From positions 615,610 through 679,609 of the forward strand of contig AP024681.1 of the NCBI GenBank assembly GCA_025999335.1: DNA of 64,000 nt, read 5' to 3'. Shown here in pieces: positions 1,751 through 64,000 of the stretch. Below the pieces are notes generated by a model, which saw only the letters and a program-made list of their open reading frames with translations, had not been told where the DNA came from and did not search any database. The DNA comes from Candidatus Parcubacteria bacterium. GTDB lineage: Bacteria; Patescibacteriota; Minisyncoccia; UBA6257; HR35. How positions within the stretch are numbered: position 1 is the first letter of the stretch; each line of letters begins with the position of its first letter. Position numbers and translations under genes: made by a program.

Positions 1751-2395
1751 ATGGATGATAGAAGTTTTTTTTCTTGTATTATTCCAGCTTATAACGAAGA
1801 AAAAACAATTGGATTAGTTATTAAAGCAGCGCTTCAACACCCATTGATAAAGGAAGTTATAGTTATTTCAGATGGTTCTACAGATCAAACTAAAGACATT
1901 GCTATTACTTGCGGAGCTCATACAGTTATTCAATTAGAAAAAAATATAGGCAAAGGCGGCGCTGTTTTAAAAGGTGTTTCTTATTCTAAGTATGATAACT
2001 TGTTATTATTAGATGCTGATTTAATTAATTTAACTATTAATCATATAGATGCTTTAATTAAGCCATTAATAGAGAATAATGAGATAGTTATGTCAATTGG
2101 AATATTGCCTAATCAATTATTGCCTTATTTATCTGGACAAAGAGCCTTAAGAAAGTTTTTAATAAAAAATATTCACGAAGATCTTATTAATAATAGTAAA
2201 TATGGATTAGAAATTATTTTGAGTAATTATGTTAAGAAAAATCAATATAAGACTGTTTTTGTTAATTTAAATGATATTCACTTTTTAAGAACTTTTGCTA
2301 AATTTTCCTTTATAAAAAGTTTACAATTAGAATTAAAATTTATTAAAGATTTATTAAGGATACTATTATTGTTATTTTTTTTAAAATTGAAGTGA
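1751..2395 (+). CDS. Family 2 glycosyltransferase (short form)
   Basis: N-terminal 'SCIIPAYNEEKTIG...ISDGSTDQT' and the DAD-like 'LLLDADL' motif are typical of the GT2 fold. Confidence 0.55.
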   Translation: MDDRSFFSCIIPAYNEEKTIGLVIKAALQHPLIKEVIVISDGSTDQTKDIAITCGAHTVIQLEKNIGKGGAVLKGVSYSKYDNLLLLDADLINLTINHIDALIKPLIENNEIVMSIGILPNQLLPYLSGQRALRKFLIKNIHEDLINNSKYGLEIILSNYVKKNQYKTVFVNLNDIHFLRTFAKFSFIKSLQLELKFIKDLLRILLLLFFLKLK

Positions 2396-2414
2396 TTGCT
2401 TTTATTTAATAATA

Positions 2415-3599
2415 TTATTTTTTAACTATTTTAAATTTTACAGTATTCGGTTTTATTTCTACGATTTCTATATTTTTAGGTAGATTAATAATATTATTTT
2501 TATTAATATCTATTGAATAATTGCCTTCATCTAAATTAAATAAGTCAATGATTGTTTTTAGCTTCGATTCATCAAGAAATTTAAAATCAGAATTATAACC
2601 AGAGAGAATAACTATTGTTTTAAAAGTAGAAGGCGATTGTATGGCGTATTCATCTTTTAGCCCTTTAAATTCTACCGGAATTTCTATGCTTTTTTGTATT
2701 TTCGCATTGTCGTAATTAGAAATTGCCCAAAAAGATAGAGTAAACATCAATGTTATAAAGAAAATAAGAGTTAGTTTAAGAATATTGATGTTGTTTAAAA
2801 TTTTTGTCAATTTTCTTTTTTCATGAAGATTGTAGTATTCTTTTAATGTTTTTTCTATTTTATTTAAAGAGACATCATAATCTATGCGTCCGTTACTTGC
2901 TAATGAAATATTGCCATTTGTTTCGGAAATAATAATACTAATAGCGTCGGAAATTTCAGTAATGCCTATTGCAGCTCGATGACGAGTAGCGGTAAACTTT
3001 TCATTATCTATTATTTGTCCCAGAGGTAAATGAGCTGCTGCCCATTTTATTGTCGAATTATTGATAATAATAGCTCCATCGTGTAAAGGCGAAGATTTAT
3101 TAAAGATACTTAAGATTATTTCTTTGTTAACCTGACTATTAAGAGCAATTTTGTGTTCTAAATAGTTTTCTAAATCAATCTTATTTTCCAAAACTACTAT
3201 AGCTCCTATTTTGTTTTTAGATAGATATTGAATCGCTTTTAAAATATCTAAAATAATTTTTTGTTTTTCATAACTGAAATCTTTATGTTTGGATATTTTA
3301 AAATAAATAGCTATAAGTTCAAAAAAATTTCTTAATTCTTTTTGAAAGATAACTATTAAGACTATGGGGATTATATTAATTATTTCTTGCAATAATGTTA
3401 AACTTATATTTAAACCTAAATTTATTGATAATACGTATAAACCGATTATTAGTAAAAAGGTAATAACAATTTTATTTATATGTAGTTTTAAGAAAAAATA
3501 TATTACTAAAGTTATAACTGTTGATGATATTAAAATATCAATAATATCTTTAAAAACTATGTTTTTTAAAACAAACAGATAATCATTTATGTATATCAT
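2415..3599 (-). CDS. cdaA: Diadenylate cyclase CdaA fused to a C-terminal YbbR/CdaR-like domain
   Basis: N-terminal TM helices; DAC-domain motifs 'PLHDGAIII' (DGA) and 'TATRHRAAIGITE' (RHR); then a TM segment and a roughly 110-aa beta-rich YbbR-like tail. Confidence 0.7.
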   Translation of the reverse strand: MIYINDYLFVLKNIVFKDIIDILISSTVITLVIYFFLKLHINKIVITFLLIIGLYVLSINLGLNISLTLLQEIINIIPIVLIVIFQKELRNFFELIAIYFKISKHKDFSYEKQKIILDILKAIQYLSKNKIGAIVVLENKIDLENYLEHKIALNSQVNKEIILSIFNKSSPLHDGAIIINNSTIKWAAAHLPLGQIIDNEKFTATRHRAAIGITEISDAISIIISETNGNISLASNGRIDYDVSLNKIEKTLKEYYNLHEKRKLTKILNNINILKLTLIFFITLMFTLSFWAISNYDNAKIQKSIEIPVEFKGLKDEYAIQSPSTFKTIVILSGYNSDFKFLDESKLKTIIDLFNLDEGNYSIDINKNNIINLPKNIEIVEIKPNTVKFKIVKK

Positions 3600-3805
3600 T
3601 TTTATATAAAACTACAAACAATTAAAACATTTATTTTTTCATTAAGTTAATTAATTTTTAATATTATTAAAAAATTGGTATTGGTATAGATAAATATAAT
3701 ATTTATGTAGTTATTATTAAAAGAGAACTATTTTTTATATTATAATTGAATTTTTGTAATTTAAATAAAATTTTTGTCAATATTGTTTTATATAAGAAGC
3801 AGAAA

Positions 3806-4090
3806 TTATTTTTTAGAGAGTCTAAAAATTATTTTGTAAATTTTCGGTATTTCTTTTTTGAGATCTTTATTTTTAGAAATCTTCTGGAGTTTATTAATAA
3901 TTTGTTTTTCTCTCTGCGATGAAGTAATGGGTAGCCCATATTTTCTTTTTAAATTAACAATATATTGAGCTATTCGCAATCTATGATTTAATAGTTTGAT
4001 TATTGTTGCATCTAATTTATCTATTATTTTTCTCTTTTGTGTTATTTGACGAGTAACAGTTTTTTTAATTAAAGTTTTATTAAGGAGCAT
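3806..4090 (-). CDS. AroQ-type chorismate mutase (small helical form)
   Basis: 94 aa with the pattern 'RKIIDKLDATIIKLLNHRLRIAQYIVNLKRKYGLPI...REKQII', resembling AroQ class CM; by-eye call. Confidence 0.4.
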   Translation of the reverse strand: MLLNKTLIKKTVTRQITQKRKIIDKLDATIIKLLNHRLRIAQYIVNLKRKYGLPITSSQREKQIINKLQKISKNKDLKKEIPKIYKIIFRLSKK

Positions 4091-4102
4091 TAGTAATTTT
4101 AT

Positions 4103-4999
4103 TTAATAAACAAAAGATAGCCAATGATGATATTGATTTATTTCGCCTGTTATAATTTGATGATAAGTATATTTAATGATATTGGTTATTTTGCCTATTT
4201 TCCCTTTATTGATTAATTTGTTATTGATTTGATAGATTGGCGTTATTTCGGCGGCTGTTCCGGTAAAAAATACTTCGTCACTGTTTAGTATTTCGTTAAC
4301 AGTAATATTTTTTTCAATAACTTTTATTTTTAAATCTTTAGCTATTTTGATAACAGTATCTCTAGTAATTCCAGGCAGTATGGATCCTAATTTCGGTGTA
4401 TAAAGTTTATCATTTTTAACTAAAAAAATATTTTCTCCTGAACCCTCAGCAATATAGCCTTTGTAATCAAGCATTATAGCTTCATCATAGCCTTCTTTTT
4501 TTGCGTCAATAGTAGCTAAAATAGAATTAATATAATATCCACATACTTTTGCTTCGCTTATAATTGATTGAGGATGTAATCTAATAAATTTTGATATTTT
4601 CACTTTTATGGCTTCTTTTTGAAAATAATTATCAAAAGGAATGGCAATAATAGCAATGTTGGCTTCTAATCCTTGTGGGTCTAAGCCAATCCTTTTATTT
4701 CTAAAGACAATAGGTCTAAGATAACAATTTTTAAGATTATTTTTTTTAACTATCTTTAAACATTGTTGCTTGATTTCTTGTTGACTAAAATCAATTTTTA
4801 TATTAATATAGTTAGCAGATTTAAATAATCTTTTTATATGATCGTCTAATCTAAAAATTGCTGCATTATTATTGATGGTTTTGTAACATCTAATACCTTC
4901 AAAGACACCATCGCCATAATGCAAAGTATGACTTAAAATTGGGACATTAGCTTTGTTAATATCTATTATTTTTTTATTAAACCAAACGTATTGTTTCAT
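4103..4999 (-). CDS. ilvE: Branched-chain amino acid aminotransferase (class IV fold)
   Basis: 'WFNKKIIDINKANVPILSHTLHYGDGVFEGIRCY', 'EGSGENIFLV', 'LPGITRDTVI', 'VFFTGTAAEITPI' are IlvE/class IV motifs. Confidence 0.7.
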   Translation of the reverse strand: MKQYVWFNKKIIDINKANVPILSHTLHYGDGVFEGIRCYKTINNNAAIFRLDDHIKRLFKSANYINIKIDFSQQEIKQQCLKIVKKNNLKNCYLRPIVFRNKRIGLDPQGLEANIAIIAIPFDNYFQKEAIKVKISKFIRLHPQSIISEAKVCGYYINSILATIDAKKEGYDEAIMLDYKGYIAEGSGENIFLVKNDKLYTPKLGSILPGITRDTVIKIAKDLKIKVIEKNITVNEILNSDEVFFTGTAAEITPIYQINNKLINKGKIGKITNIIKYTYHQIITGEINQYHHWLSFVY

Positions 5000-61253: not shown

Positions 61254-61548
61254 ATTTTTAGACGCAAATCTTTCAACTTTAGTTTTACTCTACTTTTTAA
61301 TTTTAATTATTTCATCCGTGTTAGGTGTTGTATTCTTTAATATAAAAAAAACTTTAGTAAAAAGAAACTAAAAATTTTAACTTAAATATTTCAAAAAATT
61401 TTTTAATTTTATAAGCATCTATTACTTATATAAGAATATTAAACAATGATTCAAAATTCATATTGCTTTGATTTTTAAATCGTTTTTTCTAGGTTTTAAA
61501 AAATTTTTCTTAAAGATTATAGTAAATTAAGTAAAAGTGAAGACAAAC

Positions 61549-61602
61549 AAAATATTTAAAAACAACATTCCAACATTCTTAAGAATGTTGGAATGTTAGC
61601 TT
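61549..61602. repeat. 54-bp repeat containing a perfect 17-bp-arm palindrome (copy 1)
   Basis: aaaatatttaaaaacAACATTCCAACATTCTTAAGAATGTTGGAATGTTagctt. Confidence 0.5.
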
Positions 61603-61767
61603 ATATTCTATAATCTTAAATAGATTAGAATATAATTAATATAATCTTTAACTTTTAAGAAAATATTAAAATATTAATTAATTAAAAAATTATAATATTT
61701 ATTATATTCATTGCTAGTTTTTACACGTATTTTTAATAATAAAAATTTATATCATTAAGATTCATTT

Positions 61768-62346
61768 ATGAAAAACGAAATTGAAGCAACATTTCTTTCG
61801 GTTAATAAAGATTCAGTACGAACTAAACTTAAGAAAGCTGGATTTGAACTAAAAACTCCTGAATATTTAATGCGGAGAAAAACTTTTGATTTCTCCCGTG
61901 TTGCGCCAGGCCAAAACAAATGGGGACGTGTTCGTCAGGAGGCAGATATGGTAACGATGACTATAAAGGAAATTCGTGGATCGGGAATTAACGACACTTA
62001 TGAAATTGAACTAATAGTTAACGACTTTGATACTGCCTGTGATTTTTTTGAAGCATGTGGCATTCCTGCGAAAGCGTTTCAAGAAAATATGCGCGAGGTA
62101 TGGACACGTAATGGCGTTGAAGTAACGATTGACACATGGCCTGGGCTAAATCCGTTTGTTGAGATTGAAGGTGAAAACGAAAAGGTTGTTCGGGACATAT
62201 CTAAAGAGCTTGGTTTTGATTTTGAAAAGGCTGTTTTTGGAAGTATTGATCTAATATACGAAAAAGAGCTTGGTATTCCTGCCGAAATAATTATTCGTTT
62301 ACCAGAAATTACCTTTGCTAATCCGCCAAAGAAAAAGGACATGTAA
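61768..62346 (+). CDS. CYTH-like domain protein (class IV adenylyl cyclase/triphosphatase fold), tentative
   Basis: N-terminal 'EIEATFLSV' (EIE.KF motif); GC content visibly higher than its neighbours. Confidence 0.45.
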   Translation: MKNEIEATFLSVNKDSVRTKLKKAGFELKTPEYLMRRKTFDFSRVAPGQNKWGRVRQEADMVTMTIKEIRGSGINDTYEIELIVNDFDTACDFFEACGIPAKAFQENMREVWTRNGVEVTIDTWPGLNPFVEIEGENEKVVRDISKELGFDFEKAVFGSIDLIYEKELGIPAEIIIRLPEITFANPPKKKDM

Positions 62347-62564
62347 TTCATATATTTTTACACATTATTAAAATTTATAAATATTTATAATTGATTAATT
62401 TTTAAAGTTTTCATAATACAGTAACAATCCTTAAATTCTTTATAGAAAAACAAAATTATTTTTGAATCTAATAATTTAATCTTTTTAATTCTTTAAAAAG
62501 TTTCATAAGTTCTAGGTGTTAAATAGATATTAGCATTTTATAAATCTGTATTAAAATTATTCTA

Positions 62565-63611
62565 ATGAAGTTTAAATTTAAGATTTCCCAAACAGGAAAT
62601 TTTTATTTTTTTATTTGGAATCTTAGCGAGTGGCATTTTTCCTGTAGGCCCGAAGTAAATTACTATTGGAAAACTTTTTCGCCAACCAAATCTTTTAAAG
62701 AAGAACTTTTATTGGAAAAATATTTAAAAAAATCAGCGAATATTTTTAAAAAATACGAAAAAGAGAAAGGCGAAGTTGTTTTTCCAGTTCTCGCTAAAGC
62801 TTTAAAGGCTAAAAGCAAAAAAGATATTTTGAATGAACTTAAAGGAAGAGACAGAATTTTTATGGAAAAAGTTTTTAAGGTTTTTGAGACAATGTTTTCT
62901 TTTTATTGGCAGGAATCAAAGCCAAGATTAAAAAAATTTATTCAGCTTTTTGCAAATCCTAAAGTAGAAAAATTAATTGGCAAAGCCCTAAAAATACTTG
63001 AAATTTATTTTGGCAAGATAGATTCTAAAGAAATTACTGTTTATCTTTTAATGATACCTCAGCATTTTATGGGCGGAGGTGGCGCTAATGTTGGAAGAAA
63101 TAAAATAACCGTGGAAATTGGCAATATTTCTCCTAAAGGATTTCGATGGTCTTTAATTACCATCTTACACGAAATTGCCCATGTTTGCTTTCAATATCAT
63201 CAAAGTTATTTCGATAATTTGCTAAAAGAATTTTTAAAATCTTTAAATAAACAAGAAATTAAAGAAATTAATATTGATAAAATATTTGATAACGATTTAA
63301 TAACTATTTTTAGAGAAGGTATTACTTCTTCAATAATTTCTGATGGTATCATTGATGATATTCTTTTTAAAACCAATACAAGAAAAAAATTGGAATTTCA
63401 GTTAAAAAATATTGATTTTATTAAAACTTATCCTGAAGGTTATTTTAGAAAATTTATGAGTTACTATCTTTATCCTTTAAACAAAAAATATCTTCGCCAA
63501 AAAAGAAAAATTGATAAAAATTATTTAAAAGAATCTTTAAAATTAATTAAAAAATTTAATAAGATATATAAAAAATTTAACGGTTATATAAGATTATACA
63601 ATTTCAATTAA
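62565..63611 (+). CDS. Hypothetical protein with an HExxH motif ('LHEIAHVCF')
   Basis: ORF; possible zinc-metallopeptidase-like motif. Confidence 0.35.
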   Translation: MKFKFKISQTGNFYFFIWNLSEWHFSCRPEVNYYWKTFSPTKSFKEELLLEKYLKKSANIFKKYEKEKGEVVFPVLAKALKAKSKKDILNELKGRDRIFMEKVFKVFETMFSFYWQESKPRLKKFIQLFANPKVEKLIGKALKILEIYFGKIDSKEITVYLLMIPQHFMGGGGANVGRNKITVEIGNISPKGFRWSLITILHEIAHVCFQYHQSYFDNLLKEFLKSLNKQEIKEINIDKIFDNDLITIFREGITSSIISDGIIDDILFKTNTRKKLEFQLKNIDFIKTYPEGYFRKFMSYYLYPLNKKYLRQKRKIDKNYLKESLKLIKKFNKIYKKFNGYIRLYNFN

Positions 63612-63772
63612 ATAAAATTTAAAACAATAATTATTTTTTAAAATTTATATGTTTTAAATGCTTCGAAATAGATATTAAATATATAAAATAAATCTTATAT
63701 ATTTTTAAAATTATATAGATTGTATTTTTAAATTTTTAATTAATATTCAGAATATTTTTATGATTTTGAATA

Positions 63773-63826
63773 AAAATATTTAAAAACAACATTCCAATAT
63801 TCTTAAGAATGTTGGAATGTTAGCTT
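63773..63826. repeat. 54-bp palindrome-containing repeat (copy 2; 53/54 identical to copy 1)
   Basis: aaaatatttaaaaacAACATTCCAATATTCTTAAGAATGTTGGAATGTTagctt; the single C-to-T change keeps a G-U pair if transcribed from the + strand. Confidence 0.5.
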
Positions 63827-64000
63827 GAAGATGGTTGATTGCGTGAAAATAAAAAAGAATAAAAAATTAAAATTAATAGATAATTTTACTTTTATTAATT
63901 AGATTTTAAAAATATAAAGCATTAATATAATTGATAAGCTAAAAAGCTTAACGGTTGTTTTGAAAAATAACATTAAAAACTAAAGGAGCATTTAAAAGTT

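Follow-up and report, generated by a model that had tools for sequence, protein, structure and literature searches.

A conserved palindrome around two genes of a Parcubacteria genome as a putative operator of an ArsR-type winged-helix protein

Two near-identical 54-mers at the locus

The window analysed here is a stretch of 64,000 nt (64 kb) from the genome of Candidatus Parcubacteria bacterium (contig AP024681.1), near the end of which two almost identical 54-mers enclose two co-oriented genes. Each 54-mer contains a palindrome that, judged from comparison with related genomes, is most likely the cognate binding site of a ~90-aa winged-helix (wHTH) protein of the ArsR/SmtB family. Both copies in the window are probably operators of such a regulator, which would be encoded elsewhere in the genome. 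The features of the locus are as follows.

54-mer copy 1, 61549-61602, no strand: 15 nt of A/T-rich left flank, a 34-bp perfect palindrome and 5 nt of right flank.
28-bp core of copy 1, 61567-61594: ATTCCAACATTCTTAAGAATGTTGGAAT, an exact fit to the cross-species consensus ATTC-N4-ATTCT-NN-AGAAT-N4-GAAT; putative site (13-2-13) of an ArsR-type regulator.
Promoter-like element, 61579-61607, + strand: -35 TTAAGA (palindrome centre, 61579-61584), 17-nt spacer and -10-like TATATT (61602-61607), facing the CYTH-like gene, which starts 160 nt further on.
CYTH-like (class IV adenylate cyclase-like) gene, 61768-62346, + strand: 192 aa, identical to NCBI KatS3mg097_660; the open reading frame (ORF) richest in GC in the window.
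Hypothetical protein gene with a HEIAH (HExxH) motif, 62565-63611, + strand: 348 aa, identical to NCBI KatS3mg097_661, 24.5% GC.
54-mer copy 2, 63773-63826, no strand: T at 63798 where copy 1 has C.
28-bp core of copy 2, 63791-63818: ATTCCAATATTCT TA AGAATGTTGGAAT.

A previous reading of this DNA, made from the sequence only, had described the two 54-mers as differing by one substitution and as each holding a perfect palindrome with 17-bp arms. Their positions and their 53/54 identity were confirmed. The 34-bp palindrome (AACATTCCAACATTCTT followed directly by AAGAATGTTGGAATGTT) occupies 61564-61597 and 63788-63821, but it is perfect in copy 1 alone: the change from C61574 to T63798 falls inside the left arm of copy 2 and gives a T-G mismatch. 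Each arm consists of two AACATTC copies placed 8 nt apart, and the core has a 13-2-13 architecture, ATTCCAACATTCT-TA-AGAATGTTGGAAT in the window copies, with the same layout in 342 unique sites. Searching the whole window with up to three mismatches returned only two palindrome matches, both within the 54-mers, where 100 shuffles gave an expectation of 0. Both copies are predicted to fold stably (-20.3 and -18.5 kcal/mol, with z of -7.6 and -5.5 relative to shuffled sequence). Outside the family consensus, their flanks agree over 12 nt on the left and 5 nt on the right.

The promoter-like element at copy 1 (TTAAGA-17-TATATT) has the same geometry and offset as the regulator's own promoter in other genomes, described below. 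At copy 2, the canonical -10 offset on the + strand holds TGAAGA and no -10-like hexamer. About 400 nt without a gene follow copy 2, and the next + strand gene starts beyond the window end, as seen in a 2.7-kb Logan contig of the same organism that begins within the first palindrome and extends 231 nt beyond the end of the window.

The palindrome across species and its winged-helix protein

Scanning one genome per species with the pattern ATTCCAAYATTC-N4-GAATRTTGGAAT retrieved at least 120 DNA stretches, 80 of which are listed. The core ATTCCAACATTCT-NN-AGAATGTTGGAAT is matched exactly in at least 120 stretches from more than 100 species, mostly Patescibacteria. Named Patescibacteria lineages account for 56 of the 80 listed stretches (Saccharibacteria, Paceibacterota, Giovannoni-, Doudna-, Zambryski-, Nomurabacteria and others), while 13 are otherwise labelled (Verrucomicrobiota/Chthoniobacterales 4, Kiritimatiellia 4, Bdellovibrionales 3, Omnitrophota 1, Gammaproteobacteria 1) and 11 are unclassified. 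The GC content of the palindrome-bearing loci ranges from 26 to 59%. In these pattern-selected loci, 13 nt of each arm are constant and variation is confined to the central two bases (GC, CA/TG, TA). The trinucleotides AAC...GTT are conserved just outside the core, the pairing excess ends 4-5 nt out, and the family consensus reads NAAC ATTC-YNAY-ATTCT-NN-AGAAT-RTNR-GAAT GTTN.

Sites occur at a density of about one per 10-15 kb in the DNA examined, reaching locally 5-7 per 8 kb. The extra sites are intergenic and stand beside unrelated genes, among them those for RadC, an ABC transporter, MurC, a glycosyltransferase, a NUDIX protein and ribosomal protein S9, as well as AbiEii-like, DUF559-like, NYN, PD-(D/E)XK and enolase genes. 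A search of 2.9 million viral contigs yielded just one site and one wHTH gene, on which ground a phage or plasmid origin was rejected. Neither sequence words nor topic terms led to a description of the motif in the searchable literature, and the regulator-site pair is apparently undescribed.

Clustering of 1,048 crude ORFs flanking the sites revealed a single recurrent neighbour, a protein of 88-101 aa present in 22 loci and adjoining a site in 17 of them, with the site mostly 0-32 nt upstream of its start. This protein matches the Pfam families HTH_5 (ArsR), MarR and HVO_A0114, and its profile retrieves HlyU, CadC, CzrA, SmtB, ArsR and AspA from the PDB, the best match being HlyU (3jth, E 1e-10). 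The AlphaFold model (26 database homologues, pLDDT 93) has a helix-helix-helix-wing-helix topology, and the folds closest to it are those of MarR, CzrA, SmtB, HlyU, CadC and AspA. By profile matches and predicted fold, the protein is thus an ArsR/SmtB-type winged-helix protein of ~90 aa. The metal-sensing subgroup of the family was considered and rejected: the invariant columns of two alignments (A1 and A4) contain no conserved Cys and no alpha5 metal-ligand pattern, that is, neither the alpha3N Cys nor the alpha5 His/Asp/Glu ligands. Database names of the homologues are generic ("ArsR/MarR family", "helix-turn-helix transcriptional regulator" or "hypothetical"), and PADLOC returns only generic wHTH-domain matches for the regulator (Csa3/CasR). 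The protein is widespread in Patescibacteria and also occurs in some metagenome-assembled genomes (MAGs) labelled Verrucomicrobiota, Kiritimatiellia or Omnitrophota. Among the 120 homologues listed, there is no KatS3mg097 entry.

Since the first loci had been picked by their palindrome, we performed a reciprocal test that set out from the protein. Its profile was run against metagenome contigs, where 529 relatives were confirmed; the 80 loci kept were inspected with a relaxed site pattern (ATTC-N4-ATTC-N4-GAAT-N4-GAAT, at most two mismatches), which is expected by chance about 0.4 times per 0.89 Mb. A site is present in all 80 protein-anchored loci. It lies within 120 nt upstream of the wHTH gene in 69 of the 73 usable loci, and at the 3' end or stop codon of the gene in 77 of 77. 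The sequence-only reading had listed binding sites of a palindromic-DNA-binding regulator among its suggestions, and this one gains support from the palindrome bracketing the ArsR-type gene in 80/80 loci and overlapping its predicted promoter.

The 3' site typically begins within the ORF, 13 nt ahead of its end, and the final residues and the stop codon are thus encoded by the left arm and centre of the site; in most loci (L122-L201), the gene ends A TTC CAA CAT TCT TGA, which translates to FQHS and stop. An unrelated 80-aa ORF in another locus (L141, 2753-2995) likewise ends ..PPTFQHS inside a site.

On the upstream side, the layout is fixed. The palindrome centre reads TTGAGA (site positions 13-18) and is followed by 17 nt and an extended -10 (TGnTAAGAT, TATAAT and similar) that starts 8 nt past the site, with the ATG about 6 nt further. 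From its sequence, this region is a sigma-70-type promoter of a predicted leaderless mRNA, the -35 box and the spacer lying inside the palindrome, a layout that is classic for an autorepressed gene. Over all sites, -10-like hexamers peak at offset 7 after the site, with 13% compared to a background of 3-5%. In one locus (L151), three tandem copies of a 26-nt repeat (1631-1729) separate the operator from the regulator gene start.

The enclosed genes

The two genes between the 54-mers differ in composition. The CYTH-like ORF has 37.8% GC, the highest of the 63 ORFs of the window (mean 27.5%, standard deviation 3.5), with an excess at all three codon positions. The impression that the enclosed genes are richer in GC than their neighbourhood holds for this ORF, but neither for the HExxH gene nor for the entire enclosed segment (24.8%, compared to 26.4% for the window). 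The gene labels used so far are approximate: the CYTH match is below the cut-off in both Pfam and NCBIfam (E 4e-4 and 1.6e-6), the HEIAH protein has no family match in Pfam, NCBIfam or PADLOC, and PADLOC gives no defence-system match for either protein. The upstream neighbours encode a VKOR-family protein, a glucose/sorbosone dehydrogenase and TyrRS.

The CYTH-like protein has 603 homologous clusters, the best 120 of which are 79-90% identical and nearly all 192 aa long; this range of identity holds across more than 100 clusters from Patescibacteria. Its gene (window 61768-62346; L202 6001-6579; L205 6001-6585; L206 5001-5579; L208 5001-5579; L210 2008-2586) holds a GC content of 36-43% (GC content at third codon positions, GC3, 0.22-0.38) in host DNA of 26-56% GC. 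In L202, for example, it has 40% GC amid neighbours with a GC3 of 0.49-0.75. The gene looks GC-rich in the window because it keeps its own GC whatever that of the host. Similarity of the window gene to these orthologues at the nucleotide level is 78-81% and ends at the ORF borders. This constancy may reflect either repeated horizontal transfer or an unusually strong constraint. In seven other loci carrying the CYTH-like gene, the HExxH gene is not adjacent and the neighbours differ from those in the window; part of these loci share another synteny, in which the CYTH-like gene is followed by convergent radical-SAM, thymidylate kinase and GreA genes.

The HExxH protein is a rare one: just 31 homologues were found in the database. 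The closest two (71% and 67% identity) are from contigs of 24-26% GC, and past them the identity falls to ~41%. By this comparison, the protein is fast-evolving and lineage-restricted. The coordinates of its gene are 62565-63611 in the window, 298-1317 in L214 and 3133-3891 in L215.

The spacers around the two genes are long for this genome (514 nt at 61254-61767, 218 nt at 62347-62564 and ~605 nt from 63612 to past 64000, compared to a median of 76 nt), very A/T-rich and without a called feature. No tRNA or tmRNA gene was found in the 64-kb window, and the cumulative GC skew climbs almost monotonically from end to end, which leaves no place for an origin or terminus. Directly upstream of the CYTH-like gene in L208 and L209, a large serine recombinase gene and a REP_ORF2-G2P replication-protein gene (1834-4167) may represent an integrated element. 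The otherwise syntenic loci L206 and L207, both of which carry the CYTH-like gene, differ by a LAGLIDADG-like ORF (L207 4242-4922) that lies between the L19 and Cob_adeno_trans genes in L207 and is missing from L206.

Operator model and competing explanations

In related genomes, the palindrome combines an operator architecture, a partner protein with the fold of DNA-binding repressors of the ArsR/SmtB type and an overlap with the regulator's own promoter. From this promoter layout and the protein family, we infer that the protein binds the site and represses. It would do so as a dimer or a pair of dimers, acting on its own promoter. Each 54-mer of the window would carry one 13-2-13 site of the same regulator, encoded elsewhere in the 680-kb genome. 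Comparative support for a regulator-binding site is strong, and the putative operator action at the window locus is derived from it. Copy 1 lies over the TTAAGA-17-TATATT element, which may tentatively be read as a promoter, and would thereby bring the CYTH-like and HExxH genes under the control of the repressor. Copy 2 would have arisen from copy 1 by a recent duplication, because the two have 12 + 5 nt of non-consensus flank in common. It would either serve as an auxiliary operator, through looping or as a roadblock where the unit ends, or have no function.

This reading is in line with several known repressors. SmtB, CzrA and CadC, the ArsR/SmtB repressors with 12-2-12 operators, are small dimeric winged-helix proteins of the same fold, with arms of ~12-13 nt around a 2-nt centre and an operator over their own promoter. 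In contrast to them, the protein described here has no conserved Cys or alpha5 metal-ligand motifs, its gene is bracketed by two sites, the second over the stop codon, and the site is essentially invariant across more than 100 species of several phyla, with many copies beside unrelated genes. The non-metal ArsR-type proteins HlyU, NolR and PagR bind A/T-rich palindromic targets. They resemble it in size (~90-100 aa), and HlyU is its best match in the PDB; however, they act on few virulence or symbiosis promoters in single genera, whereas the present site is multi-copy and cross-phylum, and the redox Cys pair is missing from the wHTH protein. AspA, an ArsR-like centromere-binding protein of the Sulfolobus plasmid pNOB8, is a small wHTH protein binding one specific palindrome beside its own gene. 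Its structure (4rs8) superposes on the predicted model with a target-normalised TM-score of 0.81 and a root-mean-square deviation of 0.7 Å over 70 columns. Unlike AspA, which partners with ParB and ParA on a plasmid, the wHTH gene has no partition genes next to it, and its sites are dispersed on chromosomes. The CIRCE/HrcA and NrdR boxes are palindromic operators conserved with their repressor over very large phylogenetic distances, and the cross-phylum invariance of the present site is comparable; those boxes control defined gene sets (chaperones and ribonucleotide reductases, respectively), whereas here the neighbours are heterogeneous.

Several observations weigh against the operator reading. 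Neither tblastn nor hmmsearch detected a regulator homologue encoded in the 64-kb window. Promoter-like matches around copy 1 are not above chance, with 16 compared to 19.8 in shuffles. In the family as a whole, ~65% of the sites have no -10-like hexamer at the canonical offset, and outside the regulator's own promoter such a hexamer is not predictive of a downstream co-directional gene (28% vs 33%). A general promoter element was therefore rejected, and the promoter geometry is established for the regulator gene only, because the hexamer predicts no gene once that promoter is excluded. The genes adjoining the sites have no common functional theme. The palindrome is missing from the seven other CYTH-like loci (within 5-6 kb on the longer contigs) and from three other loci with HExxH orthologues, where the neighbours are also different. 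Because orthologues elsewhere lack the palindrome and have other neighbours, the enclosed genes do not form a conserved unit, nor is either of them a conserved target, so that by sequence comparison the CYTH-like and HExxH genes have no conserved regulon membership.

The way in which the copies appear to have spread counts on the same side. Sharing of 6 nt or more past the element was seen in 7.6% of copy pairs within a locus and in 1.4% of pairs between loci, and some shared flanks are much longer: ~60 + 40 nt in L130, at least 70 nt of right flank in three copies of L172 and more than 50 nt in L066. Loci with unalignable flanks and highly variable neighbours nevertheless have a site-wHTH-site module of 85-92% nucleotide identity. 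These shared non-consensus flanks, together with the conservation of the module amid variable neighbours, suggest that copies spread by duplication, conversion or recombination and not by point mutation. In L151, three sites (1544-1628, 1972-2036 and 2715-2828) are arranged as X-site A-promoter-wHTH, wHTH-site B-Z and X-site C-Z. The flanks X and Z thus surround one solo site and are split at another by the regulator module (X-site-wHTH-site-Z), which looks like the insertion of this module into an X-site-Z unit or its excision from one. The sequences of L151 and of the near-identical strain L147 (99.8%) part 24 nt upstream of site C. The idea of recombination precisely at the palindrome was therefore not borne out, as the one strain-level breakpoint examined lies 24 nt outside it.

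Whether the palindrome is read as DNA or as RNA can be judged from how it varies. If transcribed, the palindromes could act as hairpins, namely as terminators or as 3'-end stabilisers or processing sites for the flanking genes, which we consider very unlikely. Their predicted stability is high throughout (-16 to -24 kcal/mol, z -5 to -9), variants with perfect arms and matching changes on both sides exist among the pattern-selected loci, and in that set 58% of the site-adjoining gene 3' ends lie within 40 nt of the site, with a convergent to divergent ratio of 16:7. However, this ratio is 37:27 in the larger set and not significant. In the protein-anchored set, the invariant blocks are ATTC / A-ATTCT / AGAAT-T / GAAT, and the variable arm positions 5, 6 and 8 are paired in 64, 48 and 76% of 168 unique sites, slightly above the 48, 38 and 65% expected from base frequencies. 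The arms are perfect in only ~30% of these sites, and mismatches are transversions as often as transitions. Mismatches compatible with G-U pairing show no bias between the transcribed and the other strand (22 vs 30, 24 vs 23 and 13 vs 10), so the sequence-only argument that the C-to-T change keeps a G-U pair carries no weight. On these grounds, a hairpin conserved by covariation was rejected. The same reading had noted that T-tracts are missing, which is correct for the + strand; on the - strand, TTTTT follows each stem and copy 1 was flagged as terminator-like by the terminator scan, but that strand has no genes here. With no + strand T-tract at either copy and no family-wide enrichment of T past the stem (2.92 of 8 in the direction of transcription vs 3.42 of 8), an intrinsic terminator was also rejected. 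The copy upstream of the wHTH gene contains the -35 box and hence is not transcribed as a hairpin, and an Rfam 15 scan of 61300-64000 returned only a sub-threshold chance match to a miRNA hairpin (31 bits, for a gathering score of 80). Conserved blocks with tolerant positions between them and no strand asymmetry argue for a protein-binding double-stranded site, and the pattern as a whole fits such a site better than an RNA hairpin, an attC or a miniature inverted-repeat transposable element (MITE). The last two had been proposed as boundaries of a mobile cassette, and that the palindromes are integron-type attC or Xer/dif-like sites bounding such a cassette is extremely improbable. In favour of it, two near-identical palindromes surround two co-oriented genes, one of them compositionally atypical, the AAC...GTT ends recall attC core sites, and an 11-6-11 notation with a variable centre is possible for the site. 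Integron attC sites (57-141 nt, R''-L''/L'-R' boxes) are likewise palindromes at gene ends, occasionally with two copies around a gene. Yet they conserve structure, whereas here the sequence is conserved, in a perfect or near-perfect 34-bp palindrome shorter than attC, without extrahelical bases, bulges or a cassette array. The ORFs scanned between 54.6 and 63.6 kb, seven of them upstream, include no recombinase or integrase. The sites are multi-copy and mostly solitary, the spacers are long, and the orthologues in other surroundings described above argue against a conserved cassette. A dif/Xer site was rejected, as the sites are multi-copy, only their central 2 bp vary and there is no skew inversion at the locus. 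The flanks just outside the 54-mers (..CAAAC / ATATT.. and ..TGAAT / GAAGA..) form no consistent direct repeat. A MITE was rejected as well, since there is no target-site duplication and the sole associated gene encodes a wHTH protein and not a transposase.

A different reading, which we regard as unlikely, takes the palindromes as a family of dispersed REP-like repeats, multiplied by duplication or recombination, that delimit exchangeable site-gene-site segments, including the wHTH module and the unit in the window; the wHTH protein would then be the binding factor of the element and not a conventional regulator. The occurrence of the same 28 bp in genomes of 26-59% GC from several phyla speaks for it, as do the local clusters of up to 5-7 copies, the excess of flank sharing within loci (some pairs over 30-70 nt), the rearranged flanks of L151 (X-site-Y, W-site-Z and X-site-Z), the conserved module in unalignable surroundings and the single genes bracketed by two copies in several genomes. 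In addition, the wHTH gene and at least one other gene have their stop codon within a site. Against it stand the absence of an associated recombinase or transposase next to a plain wHTH protein and of target-site duplications, the position of the one strain-level breakpoint examined, which falls outside the site, the near absence of the system from viral contigs, the mere two copies in the 64-kb window and the orthologues of the enclosed genes that have no flanking sites. The sequence-only reading had held that copies of the 54-mer beside many unrelated genes would point to a generic REP-like terminator; the core does adjoin many unrelated genes in more than 100 species, but the family has no terminator signature. 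With the REP/RAYT system (REPtron), the palindromes share their dispersed extragenic location and a gene flanked by two copies. They differ from it in that the flanked gene encodes a wHTH protein and not an HUH/Y1 transposase, the consensus has no GTAG head, the arms are often imperfect and the core is shared across phyla, whereas REPs are species-specific. The stronger proposal that palindrome and wHTH protein form an unrecognised repeat system of Patescibacteria, with site-gene-site modules exchanged or duplicated by recombination at or beside the palindromes, appears quite unlikely. If true, it would amount to REPtron- or integron-like gene shuffling in ultra-small genomes, built on a winged-helix protein and not on an HUH transposase or an integrase, and the CYTH-like/HExxH unit between 54-mers with shared non-consensus flanks would be one such module.

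Taken as the site of an ArsR-type regulator, the palindrome is of interest because Patescibacteria, also known as CPR, are mostly uncultured, have very few transcription factors and are almost uncharted in their gene regulation. It provides a concrete regulator-site pair, consisting of a ~90-aa ArsR-type protein, an essentially invariant 28-bp palindrome and a defined predicted leaderless promoter. This pair is testable in vitro or in E. coli without culturing the hosts, and its sites can be used to predict regulated loci in CPR MAGs. Bracketing by two sites, one of them over the stop codon, the many sites beside unrelated genes and the sometimes shared flanks are atypical for operators and could indicate a role in chromosome organisation or recombination.

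A second type of palindrome, with the same outer blocks and a GCGC centre (ATTCTCTAATTCGCGCGAATTAGAGAAT), is present in several regulator loci (L172 at 576; L140 at 210 and 1231; L139 at 2006 and 2944; L191 at 2129; L135 at 190; L131 at 3816) and may be the site of a paralogous regulator.

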